Virus record (IMG/VR): IMGVR_UViG_3300046819_000377 | Location: 3,802 to 67,801 of that record | Length of the DNA stretch: 64,000 bases | Reading direction: 5' to 3' (one strand) | Source of the DNA: a virus | Part shown: piece after piece, positions 3,210 to 64,000 of the stretch | Layout of the letters: the number at the start of each line of letters is the position of its first letter | How positions within the stretch are numbered: the stretch's first letter is position 1 | Made by a program: the position numbers and the translations under genes | The notes under the pieces: model-generated | Database searches by the model: none | Told to the model about the DNA's origin: nothing | Seen by the model: the letters and a program-made list of their open reading frames with translations, nothing else

Positions 3210-3440
3210 ATGAAAATGAAAGGTTTTACACTAATCGAGATAGTTATTACTATTGCTATCATCTGCATTATTGGCGGTATTATACACACCAACAGTAACA
3301 ATGTATCAGTCGGTATCAATGGTATGGTGGAAACACGATGTATCAATAATTTACAATTTGTAATAGGCGAGAAAGGCAGGGTCACACAGGTCCTTGATAC
3401 CAATGGCCATGGCGTTTCTTGCACCAAATCAAACATTTAA
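3210..3440 (+). CDS. prepilin-like small protein (type IV pilin N-terminal motif)
   Basis: N-terminus MKMKGFTLIEIVITIAIICII has a G-F-T-L-I-E class III signal/N-methylation motif plus a hydrophobic helix. SD aaagag. Confidence 0.5.
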   Translation: MKMKGFTLIEIVITIAIICIIGGIIHTNSNNVSVGINGMVETRCINNLQFVIGEKGRVTQVLDTNGHGVSCTKSNI

Positions 3441-3454
3441 TAAAACATAAAAAT

Positions 3455-4123
3455 ATGACAACTTATACAACAACAAAATCAAATGCAATGACACGTGTTT
3501 ATCGCAACATGGCTTTATCGGTATTCACTACCATGGTAGTAGCGTATATCGTTAGCCAAAGTCCAACATTAACTGCATTCTTTTTAACTGGCCCAATGAA
3601 ATGGGTAGTGCTATTAGTACCACTGGCAATGGTTTTTGTTTTCCATGCAGTTTTGCAATCAACCGAATCGCCAATTGTGGCCCACAGTCTATTACAGATC
3701 TTTTCAGCAACATTTGGTATTAGCTTGTCGGTGATCTTTCATCAGTATAGTGCTGGGTTGATTACCAGTGCGTTCTTGGGTGCAACGGTATTGTTTACCA
3801 CTATGGCAATTTACGGGATGACTACTAAACGAGATTTAACATCGATTGGTGCCTTCTTGATGGTTGGATTAATTTCTTTAATTATTGTTAGTGTTATCAA
3901 TCTATTCATTGGTAATTCATTATTAGATTTGACATTATCTGGGATTGGTGTTATCATCTTCTTGGGCTTTACCGCATATGATGCACAAAACATTCAAGAA
4001 ATGGTTAACTATGAAAGTAATACCAATCTTGAAGTAATGGGCGCTTTGTCATTGTATCTTGACTTTGTAAATCTGTTTCTGGATTTACTGAGATTATTTG
4101 GTGCTTTAGCATCCGACGATTAA
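3455..4123 (+). CDS. Bax inhibitor-1 / YccA family inner-membrane protein
   Basis: Seven hydrophobic segments. C-terminal signature ..DAQNIQEM..NLEVMGALSLYLDFVNLFLDLLRLFG is typical of BI-1/YccA (PF01027). Confidence 0.7.
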   Translation: MTTYTTTKSNAMTRVYRNMALSVFTTMVVAYIVSQSPTLTAFFLTGPMKWVVLLVPLAMVFVFHAVLQSTESPIVAHSLLQIFSATFGISLSVIFHQYSAGLITSAFLGATVLFTTMAIYGMTTKRDLTSIGAFLMVGLISLIIVSVINLFIGNSLLDLTLSGIGVIIFLGFTAYDAQNIQEMVNYESNTNLEVMGALSLYLDFVNLFLDLLRLFGALASDD

Positions 4124-11391: not shown

Positions 11392-11621
11392 TGAACTATA
11401 GTATTGCGAAAGACTTGAATATTATTGCGCGAGCAAATGCTAGTGCTATAATAGCCGAAGCTCATAAAAATGGTCAATCGATTAATGTTGAAGCGGTTAA
11501 AATTCATGAATTTGCCGAAATTATTATTTTGGAATGCATCAATGTAATTTCAAGCCATAGTGATCCGTTTGCTCAAAATTCATACATTAAAGTACTCAAA
11601 GAACATTTTGGTATTGAATAA
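11391..11621 (+). CDS. H-family small protein (..FAEIIILECI..HFGIE*)
   Basis: TAATGA junction. Confidence 0.6.
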   Translation: MNYSIAKDLNIIARANASAIIAEAHKNGQSINVEAVKIHEFAEIIILECINVISSHSDPFAQNSYIKVLKEHFGIE

Positions 11622-14384: not shown

Positions 14385-14510
14385 ATGGTTATGGTGTTCA
14401 GAAACAATATTCCAACCGTAGAACGATATGTAGGTAAACTAGTGCTGAATGCTATTAAAGCATATCAATTTAGATATATTAATGGATACATACCGTCTTT
14501 TACTGCTTGA
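14385..14510 (+). CDS. possible small ORF (41 aa), in frame with and 69 nt downstream of the 14315 stop
   Basis: ATG 14385 to TGA 14508-14510. Could instead be a read-through extension of the upstream gene. Confidence 0.2.
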   Translation: MVMVFRNNIPTVERYVGKLVLNAIKAYQFRYINGYIPSFTA

Positions 14511-14534
14511 CAATGTATTTTTAGTTGCTATAAT
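14507..14534 (+). promoter_or_regulatory. sigma70-like promoter TTGACA-N16-TATAAT + ACACACAGCGAGACATGACATG leader
   Basis: TTGACA 14507-14512, TATAAT 14529-14534. Confidence 0.6.
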
Positions 14535-14566
14535 AAGCACATCTTAAACACACAGCGAGACATGAC

Positions 14567-14857
14567 ATGAAAGACTATTCTAATTATTGCGGTACTGTTA
14601 CTACTGAAACTATCGAAGAAGCTGTTGCTTATTGTAATCAAAAATTTCCCATGCAGGAAGTTCGGTTAGCTGATGACGAAGATTTTGGACAGATATTAGT
14701 ACAGTCTGCTGAAAACCTTTCAGGCGTTACAATAACAGTATTTGATACAATGTTACATAAACAGGTAACCATTTGTGTGGATAGAGATTTGTATTACAAA
14801 TTTTTAGCAAGATCAAAAGAAGTATTGAAAAAATCAAGAAAAAAGGAAATGGTGTAA
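14567..14857 (+). CDS. hypothetical protein (96 aa)
   Basis: ORF track. Promoter upstream. Confidence 0.55.
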   Translation: MKDYSNYCGTVTTETIEEAVAYCNQKFPMQEVRLADDEDFGQILVQSAENLSGVTITVFDTMLHKQVTICVDRDLYYKFLARSKEVLKKSRKKEMV

Positions 14858-14859
14858 TT

Positions 14860-14940
14860 ATGTTTTGGCTTTCATTTTTATTTGCAACAATCATCGTTGC
14901 ATCCATTAGTTATCAAATTGAAAAAAGAGTAAAAAAATGA
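14860..14940 (+). CDS. small hydrophobic peptide (26 aa), translationally coupled to AAA ATPase
   Basis: MFWLSFLFATIIVASISYQIEKRVKK. Its TGA overlaps ATG 14937 (ATGA). SD aaggaaatgg. Confidence 0.3.
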   Translation: MFWLSFLFATIIVASISYQIEKRVKK

Positions 14941-16268
14941 CATATATTCAAGAATTAATTGCCTATATCAATTCAATGACATCAGGTAACCAAATGGTTG
15001 CTGCTGCAATAAGTGCATGGATGTTGGCAGTTTTATCGTACATGCTTAAGAATATTCCTCGGACTATTATTAACTTTTTGTATAAGCAGGGTACAACTTC
15101 ATTAGAATTAGATAATGCTGGTGCTAATTTTCATTTATATTTTTCGTTCCTGGCATGGTCAGGTAAACATATGAATGAACATACCTCAAGAACAATGTTT
15201 GTACAGTCTCATAACTGGGATGCCACATCATTAGCAATCGGTCCTAGTTACGGTAATCATTTTTTCTTTTTCAAAAAACGGTTATATTGGATGACCATGA
15301 CTAAAATTGAAAATACAGGCGAAACGATTAGAAAACAAATCAAGATCACCACTTATGGACGTAGCCACAATGTATTTCATGCTTTGATTGATGAATTCAA
15401 ACCAGTAAACAAAACAACCGATACAATTTACATTCATAACTGGGATGGCAAAGGTTGGGAAAATCGTGTTGAACTTCACAAACGCCCATTATCATCAGTT
15501 GTACTGAACAAAACAGTTAAAAATAACGTAACCGCTGCAATAGAAAAATTTTATGCTGATAAACAATGGTATACTGAAAATGGTATCCCATATAAACTGG
15601 GTATCCTGTTACATGGTAACCCAGGCTGTGGTAAAACTAGTCTGGTAAAAGCATTGGCTAGTCATTACAATAGATCTATCTACGTTATTAATATCAATGC
15701 AATGTCTGATAGAACACTTGAATCAGCTATTTCCAAATCAGAAAAAGGCTCATTTATTTTGATCGAAGATTTTGATTCATCGAAAGCAGTTACCAAAAGA
15801 CAACGGGTTCAGGAATCTGTTGATAAAGCAAATGGTGAAGAAAAATCTGATCCAGGTAAACAACTGATCATCGATAACCCAATGGGTGAGTATGAGATGT
15901 TAAGTTTGACTGGTGTATTAAATGCAATTGATGGTGTTTCTTCTTTACACGAAAATATTATCATCATGACTACCAATGATGTTGACAAAATCGATCCAGC
16001 TGTGTTAAGATCTGGTCGATGTGATGTCAGATTGGAATTACCATACTTAACTGATCCTGAAATTCGTGAATACATCAGTATTAAGTTCCCAGATGCAAAT
16101 TTAGATGATTACACATTTAAAAATATCGCGGGTTGTGATTTACAAGCAACATTGATAGAACACAAAGATAGTAGTGATGGATTTTTATCATCACTAGAGG
16201 TAAAAGGAATTGCAAAGAAAAAGTTTCATTTCATGGAAATTGAAACAAAAATGCTTGACGTAGCTTAA
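14937..16268 (+). CDS. BCS1-like AAA+ ATPase with N-terminal membrane anchor
   Basis: TM helix AAISAWMLAVLSYML. Walker A GILLHGNPGCGKTS, Walker B FILIEDFD, arginine fingers VLRSGRCD. Linker domain typical of the Bcs1 family. Confidence 0.75.
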   Translation: MTYIQELIAYINSMTSGNQMVAAAISAWMLAVLSYMLKNIPRTIINFLYKQGTTSLELDNAGANFHLYFSFLAWSGKHMNEHTSRTMFVQSHNWDATSLAIGPSYGNHFFFFKKRLYWMTMTKIENTGETIRKQIKITTYGRSHNVFHALIDEFKPVNKTTDTIYIHNWDGKGWENRVELHKRPLSSVVLNKTVKNNVTAAIEKFYADKQWYTENGIPYKLGILLHGNPGCGKTSLVKALASHYNRSIYVININAMSDRTLESAISKSEKGSFILIEDFDSSKAVTKRQRVQESVDKANGEEKSDPGKQLIIDNPMGEYEMLSLTGVLNAIDGVSSLHENIIIMTTNDVDKIDPAVLRSGRCDVRLELPYLTDPEIREYISIKFPDANLDDYTFKNIAGCDLQATLIEHKDSSDGFLSSLEVKGIAKKKFHFMEIETKMLDVA

Positions 16269-16282
16269 AAAGCTGATACAAT
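16255..16282 (+). promoter_or_regulatory. sigma70-like promoter TTGACG-N16-TACAAT inside 3' end of AAA gene
   Basis: TTGACG 16255-16260, TACAAT 16277-16282. Leader acacaacaacataagagaa. Confidence 0.45.
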
Positions 16283-16314
16283 ACACATTTTACACAACAA
16301 CATAAGAGAACTTT

Positions 16315-17382
16315 ATGACTTATTATTTGAAATCTGGCAACACATACAAACCAAGTGCAGAAGCATCATTGGATCTTCACTACACACTGCCAGTTGGCAA
16401 TTACATTATCAAAAAAGATCCTTTCGAAAATCTATATTTCGAAAAAATTGACAATTTCGAATTTTCTGGAAAACGCTATGGTGATAACCAGAAGAATACC
16501 GATCGGATTATCGATACCTTTATGGATCGTGAAGTTTCAACTGGCGTAATGTTGACTGGTGAAAAAGGTTCTGGTAAATCATTGTTAGCAAAATGCTTAT
16601 CAATGAAAGCAGCAGAATTAAACATCCCAACTTTAATCATTAACGATCCATGGTGTGGTGACAAATTTAACCGTTTGATCCAAGAAATTCAACAACCTTG
16701 TATCGTGTTATTTGACGAGTTTGAAAAGGTATATGACCGTGATAGCCAGGAATCAATCCTGACATTACTCGACGGCGTGTTCCCAACCAAAAAATTGTTT
16801 GTATTAACTTGTAATGACAAATGGCGCGTTGACCAACATATGCGTAATCGTCCAGGTCGTATTTACTACATGTTGGACTTCAAAGGTTTGAGCATCGAGT
16901 TCATTGAAGAATATTGCAATGATAACTTGAAAAACAAATCACATATCGATAACATTTGCAAAATTTCATCATTATTTGCACAGTTCAACTTCGATATGCT
17001 GAAAGCGCTGGTTGAAGAAATGAATCGTTATGATGAATCACCACAAGAAGCATTGGCTATGTTGAATGCAAAACCTGAGTTCGACGAAGGTAACAAATTC
17101 AATGTTCAATTACAAATCAATGGTGTTACTGTTGATCCAGATGATTACTACAACGGTGACAAATGGAACGGCAATCCATTACATGGCAGATTGCAAGTTG
17201 AATATCGTACCTATAAAGATGATCCAGAAGACGGTGTTTGGGTATATGCGAATTTCACACAAACTGATTTGAAAAACGTCGATGCATCTAACGGCAAGTT
17301 TGTGTTCATGAATGAAAAAAATGAAATCATGACCTTGACCAAAGTGAAAGATTCACATTTCAATTTTCACGACGTATTTTGA
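16315..17382 (+). CDS. second AAA+ ATPase (divergent, soluble)
   Basis: Walker A GEKGSGKS, Walker B IVLFDEFEK, sensor/Arg finger MRNRPGRI. About 120-aa C-terminal extension. Confidence 0.7.
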   Translation: MTYYLKSGNTYKPSAEASLDLHYTLPVGNYIIKKDPFENLYFEKIDNFEFSGKRYGDNQKNTDRIIDTFMDREVSTGVMLTGEKGSGKSLLAKCLSMKAAELNIPTLIINDPWCGDKFNRLIQEIQQPCIVLFDEFEKVYDRDSQESILTLLDGVFPTKKLFVLTCNDKWRVDQHMRNRPGRIYYMLDFKGLSIEFIEEYCNDNLKNKSHIDNICKISSLFAQFNFDMLKALVEEMNRYDESPQEALAMLNAKPEFDEGNKFNVQLQINGVTVDPDDYYNGDKWNGNPLHGRLQVEYRTYKDDPEDGVWVYANFTQTDLKNVDASNGKFVFMNEKNEIMTLTKVKDSHFNFHDVF

Positions 17383-17388
17383 TTAACC

Positions 17389-17417
17389 AAGTGGCGGGAT
17401 AAACCCGCCACTTTTCA
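17389..17417 (+). terminator. rho-independent terminator
   Basis: AAGTGGCGGG-ataaa-CCCGCCACTT + TTTT. Confidence 0.75.
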
Positions 17418-17429
17418 TTGGGGAATATT

Positions 17430-18029
17430 ATGAAACAATTATTAACATTAAGCTTGCTTTTAGCATCATTTGCTGCTAATGCCGGATTGAATTCAGATTC
17501 AGCAGCTAATGCTGGTTTTAGTCAATTAACCGAAGCACAGAAAGCCGAGGTAATTAAAACCATTGCACAACAAGCTGAATCAAATAAAAATTCTAGTATA
17601 TCAGGTATTGCTACTGGTATTCCAGATCCAGAAGGTATCGAACGTTGGACCAAGATTGGTACTAGCATTGCATCTGGATTAGGTGCAGCCGCTAAAGAAC
17701 TTAATGTAGGTGTCAATGAGTTTGCCAAATCACCAGTTGGACAATTGACTACATTGTTGATTATCTGGAAAATCATGGGTACTCAATTAATGCATATAAT
17801 TGGCGCAATTTTTGTATGGATTATCGGATTTTTAACCATTAAATTAGCGGCTGATAGACTAGAACCAGAAATTATCGAACATAGCAATACTGATAAGAAC
17901 ATTTTTGGTAATTTTATTATTGTTAACCGCACAAGAAGAAGTTTAGATGATGAGTCAACTTTTGGATTATTAGTGGGAATTGCTGTTGTAATCATAGCTG
18001 GTATTGTTGTATTGTTTAGCGGAAGCTAG
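17430..18029 (+). CDS. secreted/membrane protein (signal peptide + 2 TM)
   Basis: MKQLLTLSLLLASFAANA signal. Hydrophobic segments LTTLLIIWKIMG and LLVGIAVVIIAGIVVLF. Confidence 0.55.
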   Translation: MKQLLTLSLLLASFAANAGLNSDSAANAGFSQLTEAQKAEVIKTIAQQAESNKNSSISGIATGIPDPEGIERWTKIGTSIASGLGAAAKELNVGVNEFAKSPVGQLTTLLIIWKIMGTQLMHIIGAIFVWIIGFLTIKLAADRLEPEIIEHSNTDKNIFGNFIIVNRTRRSLDDESTFGLLVGIAVVIIAGIVVLFSGS

Positions 18030-18031
18030 AA

Positions 18032-18059
18032 CTGACAATCATGCAAACTATGATATGAT
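18032..18059 (+). promoter_or_regulatory. candidate promoter CTGACA-N16-TATGAT
   Basis: Upstream of 18088. SD agagga. Confidence 0.35.
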
Positions 18060-18087
18060 ACATTTTTAACATTTAGAGGATTTATTT

Positions 18088-18558
18088 ATGAAATTAGTTT
18101 TAGTATTAGCGATGGCTATTACATTGATTGCTTGCTCAGATTCTGAACAAGACCGTTTGCGTAAACAGCAACAACAATTAGCACAGCAACAGCAATCATT
18201 GAATATGCAACAGCAACAATTAGCACAACAACAAATGGCTCAACAGCAGTATCAACAACCTGCATATGACCATCAATATCAACAACCACAATACCAACAA
18301 CCTATTGTTGTTCAACAACCTGCACAAGCACCAGTAGTCGTACAACAGCCATCAAATGGTGGTTCTCATGTAACTGATATGTTAGTCGGTGGTTTGGTTG
18401 GACATGCGATTGGTAATGCAATGAGTAATAGCAACAATAATCGTCCATCACCTGGGTATTATGATAATCGTCCACGTAATGTAACCAACGTGACTAAAAA
18501 CATTACTATTAATCGATCAGCCACATCAAGACCAAGTTCAGCAAGGTTACGAAAATGA
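18088..18558 (+). CDS. lipoprotein with Gln-rich low-complexity region and glycine-zipper segment
   Basis: Lipobox LIAC|S. (Q)n repeats. GGLVGHAIGNAMSN glycine zipper. Confidence 0.6.
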   Translation: MKLVLVLAMAITLIACSDSEQDRLRKQQQQLAQQQQSLNMQQQQLAQQQMAQQQYQQPAYDHQYQQPQYQQPIVVQQPAQAPVVVQQPSNGGSHVTDMLVGGLVGHAIGNAMSNSNNNRPSPGYYDNRPRNVTNVTKNITINRSATSRPSSARLRK

Positions 18559-18719
18559 TTTGGTTTGTAATCGGTAGGATTGTTATATTTGCGGCAATTG
18601 GGGTAGTACTGGCACAGTTAGGTGTAAATTTTGGTGGAACACTACTAGTACTCCTACTATTTGCAATTGCATGTGTCATTAGTTATTTAGAAGGAGTGGA
18701 AAGTGCAAAACGAAACTGA
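18555..18719 (+). CDS. small membrane protein (54 aa, 2 TM)
   Basis: ATGA overlap. MIWFVIGRIVIFAAIGVVLAQ... Not in the ORF track. Confidence 0.35.
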   Translation: MIWFVIGRIVIFAAIGVVLAQLGVNFGGTLLVLLLFAIACVISYLEGVESAKRN

Positions 18720-18873
18720 AACAGTTACATTAAACTTACCTGATGAAATGTTATTCAAGTTGATGGTAATGGCACATGAAGAAGATGTTACATTTAATCA
18801 ATTTGTCAATAATATTATTAAAGAAGAATTAGCAAAAGATGAACCATTTGCATTTCTTAATAAATCTTCTTGA
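18703..18873 (+). CDS. small protein (56 aa), possible ribbon-helix-helix-like, GTG start
   Basis: SD AAGGAG 7 nt before GTG 18703. ..TVTLNLPDEMLFKLMVMAHEEDVTFNQFVNNIIKEEL. Confidence 0.3.
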   Translation: MQNETETVTLNLPDEMLFKLMVMAHEEDVTFNQFVNNIIKEELAKDEPFAFLNKSS

Positions 18874-18897
18874 CAACCAATACAACCCTGATATAAT
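18870..18897 (+). promoter_or_regulatory. sigma70-like promoter TTGACA-N16-TATAAT + ACACACAATAGAGAG leader
   Basis: TTGACA 18870-18875, TATAAT 18892-18897. Confidence 0.6.
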
Positions 18898-18930
18898 ACA
18901 ATTTTTAAACACACAATAGAGAGTACTGAA

Positions 18931-19224
18931 ATGAGACCAAGCGTTAAATTTAATAAAAAAGGCCAAGCATTAGTTAAAGTCGCTTACAAACATGGTGAAG
19001 TAACTTGGGCATTAACTGGTATTAGCAATACCGGCAAGTTTGACTGGATCTTGTTTGAAAAACCTGATAACTATAATCCAGATCGCGTAACCAATGATCA
19101 CAAATACATTTTGTCTGGTAAAAAATTACGGGCACAATTGATTTCAACTGCCGCTGCGAGTCATAGCTTCATTGCATTAGATGCATTAAAAAAAGCATTA
19201 AAAACACAACGTGCCGGAGTCTAA
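18931..19224 (+). CDS. hypothetical protein (97 aa)
   Basis: ORF track. Confidence 0.55.
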   Translation: MRPSVKFNKKGQALVKVAYKHGEVTWALTGISNTGKFDWILFEKPDNYNPDRVTNDHKYILSGKKLRAQLISTAAASHSFIALDALKKALKTQRAGV

Positions 19225-19228
19225 TACC

Positions 19229-19690
19229 ATGGAATTAGCATTATTGATTTACGGTGTCAGTTTATTACCGCAGCTTTCTGCTTCACTTGGATGGCTTCTT
19301 TTTGTATTAGTTATACCTATGATTATCTCTGGTATAACATGGCTAGTTAACACTGATGATAGATACCTATCCGAGTCTGAAAAAGAACGTGCAAAAACTA
19401 CTGTGGATTCAGCACGAACATGGTTTAAACGATCTGTTATATGGTTTTTCATTGCGGGGGCTATGAACACTTTACTACCATCAGAAAAGACTGCATATAT
19501 GATGGTTGGCGGATATGTATCGCAAACAATTGTTCAAAGCGATGCAATGGGTAGAGTTGTCAGTGAATCTAGTAAAATTTCTGGTAAAATCTTGGACATT
19601 ATCAACAATAAACTCGATGGCTATGTTGAAGAAACCGTGAAAGGTGCTGAAAAAGCAATTACTAATGACAACACTGCCACCAAGCCATAA
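19229..19690 (+). CDS. membrane protein (about 153 aa)
   Basis: ATG 19229 (ORF-track start was GTG). Three hydrophobic segments. Confidence 0.5.
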   Translation: MELALLIYGVSLLPQLSASLGWLLFVLVIPMIISGITWLVNTDDRYLSESEKERAKTTVDSARTWFKRSVIWFFIAGAMNTLLPSEKTAYMMVGGYVSQTIVQSDAMGRVVSESSKISGKILDIINNKLDGYVEETVKGAEKAITNDNTATKP

Positions 19691-19700
19691 TTATTAATCA

Positions 19701-19736
19701 CATCATCCACTATAATAGTGGATGATGACTTTTTTA
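19701..19736 (+). terminator. rho-independent terminator
   Basis: CATCATCCACTA-taat-TAGTGGATGATG + TTTTTT. Confidence 0.75.
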
Positions 19737-23108: not shown

Positions 23109-24122
23109 ATGAAAAAATATGATAATGCAGTAGTAATCATGAGAGCGCAACCACTTCACAACGCTCATTTAGAATTAATCAATAGAGCAGCAGAATTGGC
23201 AAAAAATGTCATTATCTTGCTCGGCTCATCCAAACAACCAAGAACATTTAAGAATCCATTTACATTCAGTGAACGTTGTGGGATGATCTTACGTTCAATT
23301 AACATCAAACCAGCCGTTCAGGTTTATATCGAACCATTAGTGGATATTCCTTATAATGATCAGGTTTGGGCGATCAATGTCCAACGCATTGTTGCTGAAT
23401 GTACACATGGTCAAAGTGTTTGTTTGCTTGGACATAATAAAGGTCCAGAAACCTACTACCTAAAACTATTTCCACAATGGGCTTTGGAAGAATTCGATAA
23501 TGTACAAAACCAATTGAATGCCACTGATATTCGTGAGTTGTATTTTAAAACTCCATATAACCAAGATTATATCAAAGGTGTGGTACCTGATGATACTTTA
23601 TCATTCTTAAATCAATTTCATGGAACCGATGAATACAATGCCATCCTAGATGAGAAAGAATTCATCGCCAAGTATAAACAACAATTTGCTGGTTTAGCAT
23701 ATCCTCCAGTATTTGTTACTGTGGATTGCTGTGTGATTCAATCTGGTCATGTATTAATGATTGAAAGACGATCAAATCCTGGAAAGGGTACTTTTGCCAT
23801 GCCCGGCGGCTTTCTAGATCAAAATGAACTAATCATCGATGGTGCTGTTCGTGAATTAAAAGAAGAAACTAAAATCAAAGTGCCAGTGCCAGTGTTAAAA
23901 GGCAGCATTAAAGCAAGTCATGTATTTGATCACCCAGGTAGATCATTTAGAGGTAGAACTATTACCCATGCTTTTTACATCGAATTACCAGAAGGGCCAC
24001 TTGAAAAAGTTAAAGGTGCCGATGATGCAAAAACCGCAACATGGATTCCAATATCACAATTACAAAGTGAAAATTGCTTTGAAGATCATTATTCAATTAT
24101 TCAACATTTTTTAGGAAACTAA
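23109..24122 (+). CDS. natV: bifunctional NMN adenylyltransferase / Nudix ADP-ribose pyrophosphatase (NadM-Nudix, NatV-like)
   Basis: N-terminal nucleotidyltransferase (VIMRAQPLHNAH). C-terminal Nudix box GGFLDQNELIIDGAVRELKEETKI. Confidence 0.8.
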   Translation: MKKYDNAVVIMRAQPLHNAHLELINRAAELAKNVIILLGSSKQPRTFKNPFTFSERCGMILRSINIKPAVQVYIEPLVDIPYNDQVWAINVQRIVAECTHGQSVCLLGHNKGPETYYLKLFPQWALEEFDNVQNQLNATDIRELYFKTPYNQDYIKGVVPDDTLSFLNQFHGTDEYNAILDEKEFIAKYKQQFAGLAYPPVFVTVDCCVIQSGHVLMIERRSNPGKGTFAMPGGFLDQNELIIDGAVRELKEETKIKVPVPVLKGSIKASHVFDHPGRSFRGRTITHAFYIELPEGPLEKVKGADDAKTATWIPISQLQSENCFEDHYSIIQHFLGN

Positions 24123-29339: not shown

Positions 29340-30803
29340 ATGATAGAACATCTAAAACAACAAAATTTTATCTTACAAGCCGATGCGTACAAAGCTACAC
29401 ATTGGAAGCAATTAAAAAGATCAACTAACAAATCTTACTCGGTTATCGTCCCACGCAAAGTTAGCAAATATTCGGATATCATAGTTGCAATGGGGCAATC
29501 AATGGTTGCTTCATATTTTGCATCTGTCCGTATCACCGATGAAATGATCGATGAAGCTGAATTGGAAATTACCGAACAAGGCTATGATTTCTACCGAGCT
29601 GGATGGGAATATATTGCACACGAATTAGACGGTAAATTACCATTAGCAATTTTTGGTGTTGAAGAAGGTCGTATCGTACAACCACAAACGCCTATTTTAG
29701 GCATTATTAATACCGATGACCGTTCAGCTTGGTTACCTGCATACTCGGAAACTATTGCACAAGATATTATCTGGACAATGAGTTCAGTAGCAAGTTTATC
29801 GTTAGCAATTAGAAAAACATTTGCACATTATATCGAAGAAACTGGTGCTCACATGAATCAGTTGAACACCCGTTGTCATTTCTTTGGTGATCGTGGTGGT
29901 AGTTCTCCTGAATCTGCAGTACTTACTGCCATAGCACATGCCGTAATTTTTGATGGCAGTGATTGTTTACAAGCCAATCGTTATATCAAACGTTTGTATA
30001 ACACTTCAAAAGCATATACTTCAAGTATTGTTGCCACCGAACACAGTACAATGTGTGATAATTCTGACGCAACTACCAAAGATGATTACGGTGCAGCAGT
30101 AATGGCAGTCGAATTACTGGAACAAGCAGTTGAACGCACTAAAACCCGTGGAATTGGTATTCCAATGATTAGTGCAGTTATTGACACATACGATAGTCGT
30201 AGATTTGTCAGAGATTATGTTGGTGGTCCTGAATTAAAAGAACGTGTTATCAATAGTGGTGGTACATTTGTGTTTCGTCCTGATTCTGGTGATATTACAG
30301 TAGAGCCAGGTATGGTCGGTAATGACATTGAATATGCATTTGGTGTAGAAGTCAATGAAAAAGGATACAAAGTTATCCCTTGCTATACCGCAGTATTACA
30401 AGGCGATGGTATTAAATGGAATACTTACGAAAGTGTAATTAAAGGATGGGTTGATGCTGGTTTCAGTATTGATAACTTTGCTATTGGTATGGGCGCTGGA
30501 TTATCAAATGGTACTTCAAGAGACGATTTCAGTTTCAGTATGAAAAGTATTGCAACATTTGATGGGCTGCGTTGGACTCGTAAATTAAAAGAACCAAAAA
30601 CCGATCTTGGTAAAAAATCATTATCAGGATTAGTTAGATGTCGTGAAGATGCCAATGGTAACTTGGAAGTATACGATGCTATACACGAAGGCAACGAGTA
30701 CGGTTTTATGTATCCAGGTTCTGGTTGGAAGTTATGGTTTGAAAACGGCCATAGAAAATATCGTCAATCTTTTGATGAAGTCCGTGAATGGGCTTCAAAG
30801 TAA
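29340..30803 (+). CDS. nadV: nicotinamide phosphoribosyltransferase (NAMPT / NadV)
   Basis: N-terminal ILQADAYKATHW. Full-length (487 aa) with the NAMPT signature. Confidence 0.85.
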   Translation: MIEHLKQQNFILQADAYKATHWKQLKRSTNKSYSVIVPRKVSKYSDIIVAMGQSMVASYFASVRITDEMIDEAELEITEQGYDFYRAGWEYIAHELDGKLPLAIFGVEEGRIVQPQTPILGIINTDDRSAWLPAYSETIAQDIIWTMSSVASLSLAIRKTFAHYIEETGAHMNQLNTRCHFFGDRGGSSPESAVLTAIAHAVIFDGSDCLQANRYIKRLYNTSKAYTSSIVATEHSTMCDNSDATTKDDYGAAVMAVELLEQAVERTKTRGIGIPMISAVIDTYDSRRFVRDYVGGPELKERVINSGGTFVFRPDSGDITVEPGMVGNDIEYAFGVEVNEKGYKVIPCYTAVLQGDGIKWNTYESVIKGWVDAGFSIDNFAIGMGAGLSNGTSRDDFSFSMKSIATFDGLRWTRKLKEPKTDLGKKSLSGLVRCREDANGNLEVYDAIHEGNEYGFMYPGSGWKLWFENGHRKYRQSFDEVREWASK

Positions 30804-39645: not shown

Positions 39646-40617
39646 ATGAATATTTATATTCCGTACACTTATATTATCAAATTTTTACCAACTGGTCAAG
39701 TCTATTATGGCGTTAGTTATGCTAATAGCAATAAAGTAGCCAATCCATCACAGTTATGGACTAGTTATTTTACCTCTTCCAAGATTATTCATGGATTAAT
39801 AAAGGAACATGGCATTGATGCATTCAAGTTTGAAGTTAGAAAAACCTTCGATAGCAAAGAAAAGGCTGTGTTATGGGAACATAAGATCCTTATAAAATTT
39901 GATGCCAAGAACAATCCAATATGGCTTAATCAAAACAATGGTAATAAAAAGTTCAAATCAATTCCGCACACCACTGAAACAAAATTAAAAATTTCACTCG
40001 CACATAAAGGTAAAAAACTGTCTCCTATCACAGTTGAAAAAATAAAAAATGCAAACACTGGTAAGAAACGAACACCAGAACAAAATGCTAATACATCTGC
40101 CAGACAATTGGGGACCAAAAGAGGGCCATTATCGGATGACTGTAAGAAAAAATTATCGAGTATTCTGAAAGACAGAAAATTGACATCTGACCATAAACAA
40201 AAAATATCAATCGCACTTACTGGAAAAACTGGCACATTCACTGGTAGGAATCATACACCTGAAACAAAAGCAAAAATTTCAGCAGCACATTTAGGAAAAA
40301 AGAAGAAACGCGATCCTAATAAAAATCCACCGAAAGGCGAATCTCATCCATTATACGGCAGAACAGTACCAGCGGAAATTAGACAAAAAATTGCTATGGC
40401 GCACAAAGGTAAACCAAAGACTGAAAAACAAATTCAATCAGTAATTGATCATTCTGCTAAAACTTATAGTTTAACTACACCAGCTGGTGATACTATTATA
40501 ATAACTAATATGGCCAAATTTTGTAGAGATAATGATCTATTACGAGAAAGTATGATGAAAGTAATTCATGGTCGTATGAAATCATGTAATGGATGGACAG
40601 GGAAACTCGTTGAATAA
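39646..40617 (+). CDS. GIY-YIG homing endonuclease with NUMOD3-like repeats (free-standing, antisense to neighbours)
   Basis: IYIPYTYIIKF..GQVYYGVS (GIY-YIG). Repeated H(T/K)xE(T/Q)KxKIS..GK(K/P) modules. SD GGAGGG. Confidence 0.75.
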   Translation: MNIYIPYTYIIKFLPTGQVYYGVSYANSNKVANPSQLWTSYFTSSKIIHGLIKEHGIDAFKFEVRKTFDSKEKAVLWEHKILIKFDAKNNPIWLNQNNGNKKFKSIPHTTETKLKISLAHKGKKLSPITVEKIKNANTGKKRTPEQNANTSARQLGTKRGPLSDDCKKKLSSILKDRKLTSDHKQKISIALTGKTGTFTGRNHTPETKAKISAAHLGKKKKRDPNKNPPKGESHPLYGRTVPAEIRQKIAMAHKGKPKTEKQIQSVIDHSAKTYSLTTPAGDTIIITNMAKFCRDNDLLRESMMKVIHGRMKSCNGWTGKLVE

Positions 40618-47925: not shown

Positions 47926-48741
47926 ATGAAATATATTTTATTATTACTCGCTGCAGGTTTTACACTTTCAGCAGAAGCCTGGGACCAAGTTGCCCCATAT
48001 CCAATTGAAAAATGCCAAGTACAATCACCGTATGGCTTTCCACAAACTTCTAAACAAGGTGTAGCAATATGTCGTGCTGGTTATGTTACATTAAACGATA
48101 CTACTGCAAAATTACCAGTTTGGGTTTCTTATACATTATATCCTGAATATGCGTTAGGATGTGTTCCACGTTCTAATGGCTTTGCCCCCGATCAAAGCTT
48201 ACCAAAAGGTAGTAGGGCAGAGCTAATCGATTTTAAAGGCAGCGGCTATGATATTGGTCACGTAGTACCCAATGCAGATCAATCAAGGTTCGATCAAACA
48301 GAAAAAGAAAGTTTCTTATTAACTAATATGGTGGCTCAATTACCAGGAACTAATAGAGGAATAATTAAATTGACCGAAACTAATATTCGTGGATGGGTAA
48401 CACAGAGAAATCATCCATATGTAATTTATTCTGGTCCATTATATGGACCAGGTGATAAAACTATTGGTTTAAACCAAATAGTCGTTCCTCATGCATTTTA
48501 TAAAATAGTAATTGACACAACAACTAATGAAGTTGCTGGATTTCTAATACCACATGTCGGAAATCAAGGAAATGACTTGACAAAAGTTAGAGCACCAATT
48601 GATCAAATCCAACAATTATCAGGAGTCCAATTTGCATACCCAGCGAATGCGGTTGAATTACCATTAAATTATTTATGGCCTGTTGATTATAAAGCATTAA
48701 CCGAAGCGAAAAGAGCTGCATGCAAAGGCAACGCTAACTAA
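47926..48741 (+). CDS. secreted DNA/RNA non-specific endonuclease (Endonuclease I / NucA-like)
   Basis: Signal peptide MKYILLLLAAGFTLSAEA. GYDIGHVVPNADQS (DRGH-type motif). LPGTNRG..RGW. Confidence 0.6.
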   Translation: MKYILLLLAAGFTLSAEAWDQVAPYPIEKCQVQSPYGFPQTSKQGVAICRAGYVTLNDTTAKLPVWVSYTLYPEYALGCVPRSNGFAPDQSLPKGSRAELIDFKGSGYDIGHVVPNADQSRFDQTEKESFLLTNMVAQLPGTNRGIIKLTETNIRGWVTQRNHPYVIYSGPLYGPGDKTIGLNQIVVPHAFYKIVIDTTTNEVAGFLIPHVGNQGNDLTKVRAPIDQIQQLSGVQFAYPANAVELPLNYLWPVDYKALTEAKRAACKGNAN

Positions 48742-49709
48742 CCAGGTTTATATTTACAATTATCAAAATGCCAGCGTTTTGCGTTCGATGCATTGCTGGC
48801 ATTACCACAATACGGACAAATCAATATTTCCTGTGGTGTTAGTTTTTTGCCCTTTCTTGACAAACTCATTTTCAATTTAGATTCTTCGGTATGTGTTCTA
48901 CCGGCCATGGCCCCTACTTTTCCATACATTGGGTTATTTTCACCAGTGTTAGCTTCACTCAGTTTTTCCTTGAGCTCTTTTGCTCGTTCTACCCCGTATA
49001 TTTCATCGAAGGTCTTTCCTTTACGCAATGCAATCGTTTCCGGAGAATGTTTCTTACCCGTAAAAGTACCAGGTTTTCCATATCTATGATTTTTATCACC
49101 TAACATTTTTATACGTTTTTTCTCAGATATTTCTTTAGCCTTTTCTTCACCGAATATTTCATTATAACTTCTCCCTAACCTAGATGTTTTGTGAATAATC
49201 TTCATCGGTTTTAATGATTCTTTATAAATCCATGTCTTTTTTAATTTATTGATTTTTTCTAATGCTTTTTCTTCCCCATATAATTCAATATATGTTTTTC
49301 CCTTATTATTTGATAGTTGACCTTTATTTCGTATACTAATCATTTGTTTTTGCTTATCGGTCCATAATCTTCCTAATGTACCATCCCCACCGAGGGTCAT
49401 ATTGTATCCAGAATGGTAACTATCATATAAATTGATAAAATATGTCTCCATTGCATTTTTTAAATAATCCCCTTCTAACGATTGATATATTATTTCAAAG
49501 GTAAATTTATCGATGCCATACTTTTTAATAGCATAGTATAAATGCGAATTTAGTTTTCTTGAGTTTCTAGTATGTTCTACGATCCTTCTTTCAAAGTTAT
49601 TTGTAAAACCTATATAAATTTTCTCATTAATTGTATTTGTAATTTTATAAATGGAATAAATATCCATGTTGATACTCCTTTTCAGTATTAAAGTAGATGG
49701 GAACGCCAA
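48738..49709 (-). CDS. GIY-YIG homing endonuclease with NUMOD3 repeats and C-terminal Zn finger
   Basis: YSIYKITNTINEKIYIGFTNNFERRIVEH. NPMYGK. CPYCGNASNASNAKRWHFDNCK. Confidence 0.75.
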   Translation of the reverse strand: MAFPSTLILKRSINMDIYSIYKITNTINEKIYIGFTNNFERRIVEHTRNSRKLNSHLYYAIKKYGIDKFTFEIIYQSLEGDYLKNAMETYFINLYDSYHSGYNMTLGGDGTLGRLWTDKQKQMISIRNKGQLSNNKGKTYIELYGEEKALEKINKLKKTWIYKESLKPMKIIHKTSRLGRSYNEIFGEEKAKEISEKKRIKMLGDKNHRYGKPGTFTGKKHSPETIALRKGKTFDEIYGVERAKELKEKLSEANTGENNPMYGKVGAMAGRTHTEESKLKMSLSRKGKKLTPQEILICPYCGNASNASNAKRWHFDNCKYKPG

Positions 49710-61015: not shown

Positions 61016-61441
61016 ATGAGAGCTAAAGAATTTTTAATAGAGAACGCCAGCGGCAGCCCGGTGACCATAAACATACCAATTTCTATAACAATCCCATCGG
61101 ATGGAGGTGGAATTGTTACGTCAACTAATGATCCTGTTGAAAAAGGTGAATTACCAGAAGTTCCAATTCATGTATTTCCACTACAACAAGAATTTGAATT
61201 GAAGAAACATCAGGCAGGTGCTTCTAACCCTGTTATCAATCAAATATTGCATGACAAAGGTGCGTTATCTGACAAAACACAGTCAGAAACCGTGCAACTT
61301 CCACCTACCAGAGATACATTATCTGAAAAAGATGTTTTTACTGATAAAAAAGTAATGGTTGAAAAAGAAAATCAATCATACGATTTTCTCGAAAATTTTG
61401 ACTGGCTAGAACAAGAATTCAGAAATTCTAAAAAGCATTAA
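61016..61441 (+). CDS. protein with MRAKEFLIE N-terminus (candidate packaged internal protein)
   Basis: ATG 61016. Shared N-terminal motif. L-I-E at residues 7-9. Confidence 0.5.
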   Translation: MRAKEFLIENASGSPVTINIPISITIPSDGGGIVTSTNDPVEKGELPEVPIHVFPLQQEFELKKHQAGASNPVINQILHDKGALSDKTQSETVQLPPTRDTLSEKDVFTDKKVMVEKENQSYDFLENFDWLEQEFRNSKKH

Positions 61442-61461
61442 TTTACATTTTTGGAAGTTAA

Positions 61462-64000
61462 ATGACAATTCATAAAATCAAATCGGGTCGTGTGACTTCG
61501 CTATCAGCCGACCAATATGTAGGCGAAAAAGGTACAATATTTTATAATGAATCAGTTGGTGATTTACGTATAAGTGATGGAAGAACCCCAGGCGGTATCC
61601 CATTGAATACTGGTGCTGGTGGCAATGTTGGAGCAACTGGACCTGCTGGTATTGATGGTGCTACTGGACCTGCTGGTGTTGACGGAATTATTGGTGTTGA
61701 TGGTGCTACTGGTCCTGCTGGTATTGACGGAATTATTGGTGTTGATGGTGCTACTGGACCTGCTGGTGTTGACGGAATTATTGGTGTAGATGGTGCTACT
61801 GGACCTGCTGGTATTGATGGTGCTACTGGACCTGCTGGTATTGACGGAATTATTGGCGTAGATGGTGCTACTGGACCTGCTGGTGTTGATGGTGCTACTG
61901 GACCTGCTGGTATTGACGGAATTATTGGCGTAGATGGTGCTACTGGTCCTGCTGGTATTGATGGAATTATTGGCGTAGATGGTGCTACTGGTCCTGCTGG
62001 CGTTGACGGAATTATTGGTGTTGATGGTGCTACTGGACCTGCTGGTGTTGATGGTGCTACTGGTCCTGCTGGTATTGACGGAATTATTGGTGTAGATGGT
62101 GCTACTGGACCTGCTGGTATTGACGGAATTATTGGCGTAGATGGTGCTACTGGACCTGCTGGTATTGATGGTGCTACTGGACCTGCTGGTATTGATGGAA
62201 TTATTGGCGTAGATGGTGCTACTGGTCCTGCTGGCGTTGACGGAATTATTGGTGTTGATGGTGCTACTGGACCTGCTGGTACATTTGGTGGTGAAGCATT
62301 TGATTATTTTTATAATATATTAACTGATGATTCAAATCCTGGATCTGGTGTTTTTCGATTCAATAATACTTTATTTAATAATGCTAGTTTATTACATATC
62401 AGTACACTTGACCATTATGGAGTGTCCACCTACAATTATTTGGTGACAATTGATGATTCTACTTCCGCGATAAAAGGTCATTTTTCAGTTTCAAACAAAA
62501 CAAATCAAGCTGTATATGCCATGTTTGCAATAACAGGCAATATCATAATTCATGATGATTACATCACCGTTCCTATCACTCATCTATCAGGAGCAACATC
62601 ATATGATGACAACTTGGACGTTATTATTACCTTTGCTAGAACTGGCGATAAAGGTGAGATGGGTGCATCTGGGGTACAAGGTATACAAGGCGCTAGTGGA
62701 TCCACCGGAGTAGCCGGTGCCAGTGGGATAATTGGCCTAATTGGGGCAACTGGTGTCCAAGGCACAGCTGGTTTACAAGGAGCGAGTGGTGTAAGTTTAC
62801 CTGGCGCATCAGGCAGTCGTGGCGCATCTGGTTCAATCGGGTATATTGGGGCAACTGGACCAGCTGGTTCACAAGGCATTGATGGTGAGATCGGACCAAT
62901 TGGTCCAACTGGAGCTGCGGGACCAATTGGTCCGAATGGAGCTAGTGGTGCTACCGGGGTGATTGGTGCAAGCGGCGTTGGTGCAAGCGGGTCTACTGGT
63001 ATTCAGGGTGTTCAAGGTGCTAGTGGTATTCGCGGCGCATCTGGCACACAGGGAGCAAGTGGGATACAAGGAGCTAGTGGCATCCAAGGTGCAAGTGGTA
63101 TTCAAGGTGCAAGTGGTGCTACCGGAGTAATCGGTGCTAGTGGTATTCAAGGTGCTAGTGGTATTCAAGGTGCTAGTGGTGCAACTGGTACCCAAGGCGC
63201 AAGTGGTGCACAAGGTGCATCTGGAATTCAAGGCACAGTTGGGGTGCAAGGCGCAAGCGGTGCTACCGGAGTAATCGGTGCTACTGGCATCAGTGGAGCG
63301 AGTGGGGCAGCGGGACAATCAGGAAATGCTGGCAGTATTGGTGCAACTGGTGTTCAGGGAACTCAAGGTGCATCTGGTGTTCAGGGAACCCAAGGTGCGT
63401 CCGGAATTCAAGGCGCTAGTGGATCAACTGGTATCACAGGTGCAACTGGAACTCAAGGTAATCAAGGAGCTAGTGGTGTTCAAGGCGCAAGTGGCGTTCA
63501 AGGTATTCAAGGTATTCAAGGAGCCAGCGGATCATCTGGTTTAACTGGGGCAACTGGTACCCAAGGCGCTAGTGGATCAACAGGGATTACAGGTGCTACT
63601 GGAACTCAAGGCAATCAAGGCGCAAGTGGTATTCAAGGCGCATCTGGTACTCAAGGAATTCAAGGCGCAAGTGGTATTCAAGGGGCATCTGGTATTCAGG
63701 GTGCATCTGGTATTCAAGGGGCATCTGGTATTCAAGGGGCATCTGGTATTCAAGGGGCATCTGGTATTCAAGGTGCATCTGGTATTCAAGGCGCTAGTGG
63801 TATTCAAGGTGCCAGTGGAATTCAAGGCGCATCTGGTATTCAAGGCGCTAGTGGTATTCAAGGCGCTAGTGGAATTCAAGGCGCTAGTGGTTCTACTGGT
63901 ATTACCGGTGCTACTGGTCCGCAAGGTTCCTTCGGTGGTGCTGCTCTTGATTATTTCTATTCAACTAATACCGCCGATACCGACCCAGGTACTGGTTATT
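61462..64000 (+). CDS. collagen-like repeat giant structural protein (3' end beyond window)
   Basis: ATG 61462, SD GGAAG. Frame open to 64000. Two Gly-X-Y collagen-like tracts separated by a globular domain (..FGGEAFDYFYN..) that is repeated at 63928 (..FGGAALDYFYS..). Confidence 0.7.
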   Translation, partial: MTIHKIKSGRVTSLSADQYVGEKGTIFYNESVGDLRISDGRTPGGIPLNTGAGGNVGATGPAGIDGATGPAGVDGIIGVDGATGPAGIDGIIGVDGATGPAGVDGIIGVDGATGPAGIDGATGPAGIDGIIGVDGATGPAGVDGATGPAGIDGIIGVDGATGPAGIDGIIGVDGATGPAGVDGIIGVDGATGPAGVDGATGPAGIDGIIGVDGATGPAGIDGIIGVDGATGPAGIDGATGPAGIDGIIGVDGATGPAGVDGIIGVDGATGPAGTFGGEAFDYFYNILTDDSNPGSGVFRFNNTLFNNASLLHISTLDHYGVSTYNYLVTIDDSTSAIKGHFSVSNKTNQAVYAMFAITGNIIIHDDYITVPITHLSGATSYDDNLDVIITFARTGDKGEMGASGVQGIQGASGSTGVAGASGIIGLIGATGVQGTAGLQGASGVSLPGASGSRGASGSIGYIGATGPAGSQGIDGEIGPIGPTGAAGPIGPNGASGATGVIGASGVGASGSTGIQGVQGASGIRGASGTQGASGIQGASGIQGASGIQGASGATGVIGASGIQGASGIQGASGATGTQGASGAQGASGIQGTVGVQGASGATGVIGATGISGASGAAGQSGNAGSIGATGVQGTQGASGVQGTQGASGIQGASGSTGITGATGTQGNQGASGVQGASGVQGIQGIQGASGSSGLTGATGTQGASGSTGITGATGTQGNQGASGIQGASGTQGIQGASGIQGASGIQGASGIQGASGIQGASGIQGASGIQGASGIQGASGIQGASGIQGASGIQGASGIQGASGIQGASGSTGITGATGPQGSFGGAALDYFYSTNTADTDPGTGY
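61597..62280 (+). repeat. collagen-like tandem repeat (GATGPAGIDGIIGVD units, 27/45-nt period)
   Basis: Near-perfect nucleotide repeats ggtgctactggacctgctggtattgatgga... Confidence 0.85.
62640..63930 (+). repeat. collagen-like tandem repeat (GASGIQ units, 18-nt period)
   Basis: Nine consecutive identical 18-mers around 63700-63860. Confidence 0.85.

Follow-up and report, generated by a model that had tools for sequence, protein, structure and literature searches.

Two genes encoding AAA+ ATPases lie next to each other on the plus strand of a 64,000-nucleotide stretch of viral DNA (IMG/VR record IMGVR_UViG_3300046819_000377, positions 3,802 to 67,801; this whole stretch is hereafter termed the window, and its own coordinates are used), raising the question of whether their products act together as one system. 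The first gene (14937–16268) encodes a Bcs1-like ATPase, whereas the second one (16315–17382), following after a spacer of exactly 46 nucleotides (nt), encodes a further AAA+ protein, referred to as ATPase 2. In an earlier description of the region 14860–17417, here termed the sequence-only reading, both genes and a small hydrophobic peptide preceding them were interpreted as an operon-like block encoding a paired membrane AAA+ machine. The sequence features of that description were all recovered at the positions given. Our results indicate that the two are probably independent early genes, being neighbours by chance in this phage lineage, and not a two-ATPase system. The pair was rejected as a conserved module, because neither co-occurrence in independent lineages nor a shared history was found. 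Both proteins are new members of already known, uncharacterised phage families, and their adjacency reflects local synteny.

The product of the gene at 14937–16268 (443 amino acids, aa) matched the Pfam models BCS1_N (49.4 bits, cut-off 28.1; residues 66–188) and AAA (67.6 bits, above the cut-off), as well as, over its full length, the phage protein family phrog_7485 (2.9e-119), which is annotated as being of "unknown function". Solved yeast and mouse Bcs1 structures were recovered by sequence comparison with the PDB, 6sh3 matching at E = 8.6e-37 (phmmer). An AlphaFold2 model built on 46 homologs reached a predicted local distance difference test (pLDDT) value of 87.2, and its best Foldseek match was the Bcs1 structure 8tp1_A (E = 2e-30, TM-scores of 0.70 and 0.74), which aligned over the full length (448 aligned columns); YjoB followed in the ranking, and then generic AAA proteins. 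The layout comprises an N-terminal transmembrane helix (residues 19–37; mean Kyte–Doolittle value of 1.67 over 19 residues), a Bcs1-specific domain and an AAA module. A hydrophobic N-terminal helix is present at the matching position in 42 of the 46 phage homologs, and the model features a long helix at residues 19–52. Regarding the AAA motifs, Walker A (GNPGCGKT, 227), an acidic motif (IEDFD, 276), TTND (345) and an arginine pair (LRSGRCD, 357) were recognized. G227, G230, K233, N347, R358 and R361, among them the Walker A lysine, the sensor-1 asparagine and both arginines, are invariant in the 46 homologs, and E277, D278 and D280 are nearly so. As the sequence-only reading had proposed, the gene thus encodes a genuine Bcs1-type, membrane-anchored AAA+ ATPase; it is a phage ortholog of mitochondrial Bcs1.

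Mitochondrial Bcs1 is a heptameric AAA translocase, whose substrate is the Rieske iron–sulfur protein of complex III, and is among the few known machines that transfer folded proteins through membranes independently of twin-arginine translocation (Tat). The phage protein shares the three-part architecture of mitochondrial Bcs1/BCS1L (6sh3, 6uko and 8tp1), consisting of a single transmembrane helix, the Bcs1-specific domain and the AAA domain, and the catalytic residues are conserved. However, the identity amounts to only about 22–25%, the protein is phage-encoded and would act in the bacterial inner membrane, it features an acidic insertion at residues ~290–325, which was modeled with low confidence, and the Rieske protein is no obvious target. 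Residues 1–18 contain neither lysine nor arginine, and K38, R42 and K50 follow the transmembrane helix. Since these flanking charges obey the positive-inside rule, a topology with a short periplasmic N-terminus and a cytoplasmic ATPase, as in mitochondria, is predicted. The next-best structural family, Bacillus subtilis YjoB (7w42, E ~5e-16), likewise combines an N-domain with an AAA module but is a soluble Bcs1-related AAA chaperone without a membrane anchor, and the protein from the window is much closer to true Bcs1.

Among phages, BCS1 orthologs of phrog_7485 (phiKZ gp286, Munch gp468 and phiTE gp021) are 32–39% identical to the protein studied here, share the transmembrane helix motif and are encoded by stand-alone genes with variable neighbours. 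The copy from the window differs from them in originating from an uncultured phage with a guanine-plus-cytosine (GC) content of 34% and in belonging to the only lineage seen with a phrog_2376 ATPase alongside. For phiKZ-like phages, tblastn with the Bcs1-like protein gave two separate matching pieces (NC_004629.1, 259784–261199), which together span more sequence than the gene needs and suggest that it carries an insertion or is split (PHIKZ286) in this group. Folded-protein translocation has been described as the mechanism of the Bcs1 family (Tang et al. 2020, as cited in PMC7824862). In the literature on phage Bcs1, including phiKZ gp286 and jumbo phages, we found the overview by Iyer et al. 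(2021) and no experimental study.

ATPase 2 (355 aa) belongs to the classical clade of AAA+ proteins. It matched Pfam AAA (41.6 bits, cut-off 21.2) and, with residues 4–337, phrog_2376 (2.1e-89), annotated as "ATPase", and contains the motifs GEKGSGKS (82), DEFEK (134) and NRPGRI (178) that had been noticed before. Hydropathy analysis revealed no hydrophobic segment anywhere in the protein, which is therefore regarded as soluble; this speaks against a machine composed of two membrane ATPases. In the structural model (pLDDT 78.6), an N-terminal four-stranded beta domain (residues 1–45) and a C-terminal beta domain (261–343) flank the AAA module (58–250). The nearest solved folds are AAA domains of Bcs1 (E ~1e-9), narrowly followed by FtsH, proteasomal Rpt subunits and NSF (E ~1e-7). 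Relatives are numerous, with 4554 proteins at E ≤ 1e-10, many of them encoded on big phage contigs and 60–65% identical. The family is unusually constrained: among 40 sequences, 92 columns are invariant, including GEKGSGK, DEFEKVY and NRPGR, as is G115, while W113 is nearly invariant. The catalytic site of ATPase 2 is intact. Both residues sit between the strand 106–109 and the helix 116–124 of the model, and this position suggests PWCGD (112) as a candidate for pore loop 1.

Within phrog_2376, which includes GAP32 gp367, Pumpernickel gp160 and proteins of phAPEC8-like phages, phi92-like phages, Lahexavirus and Herelleviridae, ATPase 2 is an ordinary member; its identity to gp160 of the Microbacterium phage Pumpernickel amounts to 57%. 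The best match of the model in the BFVD reached a TM-score of 0.84, and further matches, from unrelated phages, had scores between 0.60 and 0.75. The three-domain fold was also found in Atu_ph07, pEa_SNUABM_47, SE131, Lpa804, Proteus P59 and a crAss-like phage, where the matches are annotated merely as AAA ATPases. ATPase 2 is a member of a widespread uncharacterised phage family and not a routine replication or packaging ATPase. An hhalign comparison of the two ATPase families aligned the AAA core alone (probability 97%, 20% identity).

To evaluate the co-occurrence of the two genes, flanks of up to 10 kb were inspected at each locus, together with 58 kb of phage Munch. Searching IMG/VR with ATPase 2 yielded 55 loci, and when these were queried by tblastn with the Bcs1-like protein, the sole hit was the contig sharing 98–99% identity with the window; none of the 54 other ATPase-2 loci carries a Bcs1-like gene in its flanks. 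A reciprocal, profile-driven search recovered 80 loci with AAA relatives, 16 of them full-length Bcs1-like, and no ATPase-2 homolog was present in the flanks of these 16. Taking all fetched loci together, 23 contain a full-length Bcs1-like gene and 62 a gene of the ATPase-2 family. Both genes were found together only in L004/L006, representing one contig (98–99% identical to the window), and in L065, that is, in the window's own lineage, and an ATPase-2 gene was missing from all 19 other full-length Bcs1-like loci. The same picture was obtained for cultured phages, in which the Bcs1-like gene occurs alone with varied neighbours (Munch and phiTE), as does the ATPase-2 gene (Pumpernickel, Bestia, 3-521, LAh_9, FKP3 and GAP32). 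Carriers of the Bcs1-like gene comprise phiKZ-like and other jumbo phages, phiTE and Brevundimonas jumbo phages, those of ATPase 2 comprise GAP32/CBB-like, phAPEC8-like, phi92-like, Lahexavirus and Herelleviridae phages, and the listed records of the two families do not overlap. In phage Munch, no ATPase-2 homolog was detected between 250 and 308 kb, including the position syntenic with GAP32 gp367. No near-identical DNA for the region 14500–17500 was found among 50,697 phage records, and the source phage was therefore taken as uncultured.

The proposal of a paired machine, for which co-occurrence in other phages had been suggested as a check, thus did not hold outside the near-identical lineage of the window. 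Of the two outcomes which the sequence-only reading had named as speaking against itself, the lack of the pair elsewhere was observed, and the other one, ATPase 2 being a routine replication or packaging ATPase, did not apply. Obligate paired AAA+ systems such as Pex1/Pex6 and the m-AAA proteins Yta10/Yta12 consist of co-occurring, co-evolving paralogs. The two AAA+ genes of the window are adjacent as well; however, they share the AAA core alone, possess different domain sets and do not co-occur elsewhere.

Close relatives indicate how the arrangement varies. In L005, whose Bcs1-like protein is 96% identical, Bcs1 is preceded by an AAA_33 kinase gene and followed by small membrane open reading frames (ORFs), and no ATPase 2 lies within 10 kb of it; a seryl-tRNA-synthetase-like ORF of 424 aa was also noticed in L005, by inspection of the translation only. 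In L061 (Bcs1 59% identical), ATPase 2 is missing, and only small ORFs separate Bcs1 from homologs of the membrane proteins encoded downstream in the window. Conversely, L062–L064 (ATPase 2 73% identical) share the downstream block, and a NADAR gene and TnpB are located upstream, with no Bcs1. In L065, a GIY-YIG/NUMOD3 homing endonuclease gene (1393–2274 of that locus, minus strand) lies exactly in the spacer between Bcs1 and ATPase 2, on the opposite strand. This locus is a mosaic relative to the window, its Bcs1 being 98.9% and its ATPase 2 being 89.3% identical. The identity falls sharply on one side of the homing endonuclease, as gene conversion would give. Phages of this group are rich in homing endonuclease genes, and the window itself contains some at 39646–40617 (+) and 48738–49709 (−). 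Judged from these loci, the two-ATPase arrangement is already breaking up within the lineage of the window.

The transcription signals point in the same direction. A perfect sigma-70 promoter (TTGACA-16-TATAAT with an upstream TG; 14507–14534, +) is the likely start of a unit composed of a 96-aa ORF, a 26-aa ORF and the Bcs1-like gene. The 96-aa ORF (14567–14857, +) had no family match, is 100% conserved in L004 and is absent from L005. A further promoter-like site (TTGACG-16-TACAAT, again with an upstream TG; 16255–16282, +) spans the Bcs1 stop codon, with the −35 hexamer in the 3' end of the Bcs1-like gene and the −10 hexamer in the spacer. A generic promoter scan of this AT-rich stretch returned 14 sites compared to 18.4 expected from shuffled sequences, that is, no excess. 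The site at 16255–16282 is nevertheless found at equal distance from the ATPase-2 start codon in four relatives (L004, L062, L065 and L066), and in the latter three it is closer to the consensus (TTGACA...TGCTATAAT); upstream of it, L065 and L066 carry a homing endonuclease gene and L062 is devoid of Bcs1. Behind ATPase 2, an intrinsic terminator (17390–17419, +) consists of a 9-bp GC-rich stem (17390–17412) with a 5-nt loop, followed by a T-tract. Its folding energy amounts to −19.1 kcal/mol (z = −3.5), and none of 200 shuffled sequences was as stable. L004 and L065 share this terminator, whereas another hairpin with a T-run takes its place in L062. Both signals had been predicted before and were supported here. 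Because promoter and terminator are conserved, also in relatives without Bcs1, ATPase 2 is by all appearances a portable promoter-gene-terminator cassette. The operon-like block was therefore replaced by two units: the cassette of ATPase 2 and the Bcs1 unit, starting upstream at 14507–14534.

The small peptide mentioned above is encoded at 14860–14940 (+; MFWLSFLFATIIVASISYQIEKRVKK) and consists of 26 aa, with a hydrophobic stretch at residues 2–20 according to hydropathy. As described before, its stop codon overlaps the start of the Bcs1-like gene within an ATGA (14937–14940). The ORF is open in both close relatives covering it (L004, and L005 with 24 aa), with conservative substitutions. In L005, its counterpart has a perfect promoter of its own immediately 5' and forms the ATGA overlap with the AAA_33 kinase gene instead of Bcs1. 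No such ORF precedes the Bcs1 homolog of L061 (59% identical) or any of the more distant Bcs1-like genes. A small transmembrane peptide as a recurrent upstream partner of phage Bcs1-like genes was thus considered and discarded for lack of recurrence, and small transmembrane ORFs are sometimes found 3' of the Bcs1-like gene (L005, L061 and L073), inconsistently. The 26-aa ORF is most simply explained as a putative lineage-specific leader micro-gene rather than a Bcs1 subunit.

The assignment of the locus to a phage early region was supported by the window as a whole. Nine perfect TTGACA-N16-TATAAT promoters were counted between 2749 and 29288, all of them on the plus strand and mostly with a TG-extended −10 element, compared to 0.11 expected by chance. 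Because of these nine sigma-70 promoters with their common orientation, the region is read as an early region served by the host RNA polymerase. Both ATPase genes are accordingly placed in a hyperplastic accessory region transcribed by the host enzyme, where the gain of a gene, its loss and its disruption by a homing endonuclease do not depend on the fate of the other genes.

The neighbours of each gene were also compared. For the Bcs1-like gene, 21 loci revealed neither a structural or assembly gene nor a candidate substrate gene recurring beside it; a phosphoesterase-like ORF was present near the gene in three of these loci, and a recurrent neighbour family was rejected, since only within-lineage synteny was seen. 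At 63 ATPase-2 loci, the recurrent neighbours were an NMNAT-Nudix gene (15), a NAMPT gene (14) and a 5'-3' exonuclease-like ORF (13); a functional partner among them was likewise dismissed, since the pattern looks like lineage synteny.

Furthermore, a gene for a transfer RNA (tRNA) or a transfer-messenger RNA (tmRNA) was present in the flanks of 29 of the 54 IMG/VR ATPase-2 loci, in 21 cases within about 3 kb, compared to 6 of 20 control Bcs1-like loci, a modest enrichment among loci that lack phylogenetic independence. A permuted tmRNA (L035, L037 and L042) or a suppressor tRNA with a CUA anticodon (L012 and L027) was observed at a distance of less than 60 nt on the 5' side of ATPase-2 genes. 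Pumpernickel carries its ATPase-2 gene within the tRNA array, GAP32 has it between two tRNAs, and in phage 3-521 an RNA ligase is located nearby. The window itself contains no tRNA genes.

Several points limit the explanation as two independent genes. No terminator was detected between the Bcs1-like gene and ATPase 2, and read-through co-transcription is therefore possible in this phage. The ATPases stand side by side in at least three sampled lineage variants (the window, L004 and L065), and co-occurrence was judged on flanks of up to 10 kb. Ring formation, translocation of folded domains and pore-loop unfolding are predicted from homology. A rival idea is that both proteins cooperate in this lineage, with soluble ATPase 2 preparing or delivering substrates to the Bcs1-like translocase and the 26-aa peptide acting as an accessory. 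The genes adjoin tightly on the same strand, their arrangement is retained in L004 and loosely in L065, and the nearest folds of ATPase 2 are, by a small margin, those of Bcs1 AAA domains. However, co-occurrence in other lineages is lacking in either direction, and even the close relative L005 has no ATPase 2 within 10 kb of its Bcs1. In L065, the endonuclease splits the pair, whose members have diverged unequally; a locus devoid of Bcs1 still has ATPase 2 with a promoter and a terminator of its own, and the peptide ORF of L005 overlaps another gene. Cooperation is thus considered highly improbable, and the explanation as two independent genes is retained.

The role of the Bcs1-like protein itself is a separate matter. 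BCS1 orthologs were reported in all three jumbo-phage groups, and a function in membrane-proximal virion assembly was proposed for them (Iyer et al. 2021, PMC7824862). According to this published proposal, the protein would serve as a morphogenesis chaperone translocating folded, head-bound proteins, which agrees with the concentration of the family in jumbo phages with complex virions. In the window, however, the gene follows a perfect host sigma-70 promoter within the early-promoter block, about 35 kb away from the virion genes (51.8–60 kb), and structural or assembly genes were not recurrent neighbours at the 21 Bcs1-like loci, so that a morphogenetic role appears unlikely here. For the same reasons, namely the early promoter, the distance from the virion genes and the missing structural neighbour, an early, envelope-directed role of the Bcs1-like protein is regarded as somewhat more likely than morphogenesis. 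A defence or anti-defence function of one or both ATPases, by remodelling or disabling a host immune protein or by superinfection exclusion at the membrane, was judged less likely still. Both genes are placed in a variable early accessory region, adjoining membrane and lipoprotein genes of a kind typical of exclusion functions, and weak partial matches to the IetA and TRIP13 models and to NCBIfam IteA_antiphage were obtained. However, the model matches span about 70 residues around the P-loop, IteA_antiphage reached 37.7 bits against a cut-off of 510, and ATPase 2 had no meaningful PADLOC match; its identity of about 60% across phages of very different hosts is also more in line with a universal target than with an immune protein restricted to certain strains. 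Since PADLOC and NCBIfam returned sub-threshold P-loop matches only (IetA, TRIP13 and proteasomal ATPases), an assignment to defence was discarded.

Under the preferred explanation of two independent genes, each protein would act on its own. By analogy with its mitochondrial counterpart, the Bcs1-like protein may assemble into a ring in the membrane, its ATPase being on the cytoplasmic side, and this ring may use ATP early in infection to pass a folded domain of a protein through the inner membrane or to insert it there. Specifically, an early, Tat-independent translocase of folded proteins in the bacterial inner membrane is a tentative and rather unlikely assignment; such a translocase could export a pre-folded, possibly cofactor-bearing effector or insert it into the envelope. 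ATPase 2, judged from its homologs, would be a hexamer remodelling or unfolding a protein substrate via a Trp-x-Gly pore loop, with the N- and C-terminal beta domains presumably serving for substrate recognition. Its target is probably universal and could, as an equally tentative reading, be a host machine linked to translation, as hinted at by the conservation across phages of distant hosts combined with the frequent tRNA, tmRNA and suppressor-tRNA neighbours.

Downstream of the terminator, secreted, lipoprotein and membrane proteins are encoded (17430–19690), as noted previously and supported by hydropathy and a lipobox. The first gene (17430–18029, +; phrog_19575) specifies a signal-peptide protein with two transmembrane segments according to hydropathy and is part of the downstream membrane-protein block, outside both ATPase units. 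Its homolog in L061, a locus lacking ATPase 2, is located 3' of Bcs1. A glutamine-rich lipoprotein with the lipobox LIAC (18088–18558, +; phrog_13808) follows, with homologs in L061 and L062, and then a 54-aa protein with two transmembrane segments by hydropathy (18555–18719, +), having a homolog in L062. A 56-aa ORF (18703–18873, +) overlapping the end of the latter gave a weak CopG/ribbon-helix-helix match of 26.6 bits, just below the cut-off of 28, and is kept in L061, L062 and L065. An ORF designated orf97 and a 159-aa membrane protein (phrog_3878; 19211–19690) together occupy 18931–19690 (+), with a perfect promoter on the 5' side (18870–18897) and a terminator-like hairpin on the 3' side (19701–19727).

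Other genes of the window also deserve mention. A Bax-inhibitor-1/YccA family protein of 234 aa is encoded at 3419–4123 (+; Pfam Bax1-I, E = 1.1e-52), which is unusual in a phage early region; bacterial YccA modulates the membrane AAA protease FtsH. NAD+ salvage is represented by an NMNAT-Nudix fusion and NAMPT, at 23109–24122 and 29340–30803 (+), and such genes occur within 5 kb of ATPase-2 genes at about 15 of the 63 loci. To the same observation belong positions 11566–12588 of L062 and 13625–14998 of L005; L062 additionally has the NADAR-domain gene just upstream of ATPase 2. At the end of the window (~61400–64000, +), the GC content rises to 48% across an ORF of at least 846 aa with collagen-like Gly-X-Y repeats, which runs off the window and probably encodes a fibre protein.

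Because the proposed two-ATPase machine was not borne out, what the locus offers in practice is no more than two candidate genes for functional work. For the phage Bcs1 family, however, the window adds evidence of the Bcs1-like gene as a stand-alone unit, as well as an example of an early, sigma-70-driven gene, which argues against a purely morphogenetic role. A phage Bcs1 acting in bacteria would lend itself well as a model system, might give phage effectors a new way into the envelope and, if true, would be the first Bcs1-type translocation system shown outside mitochondria.

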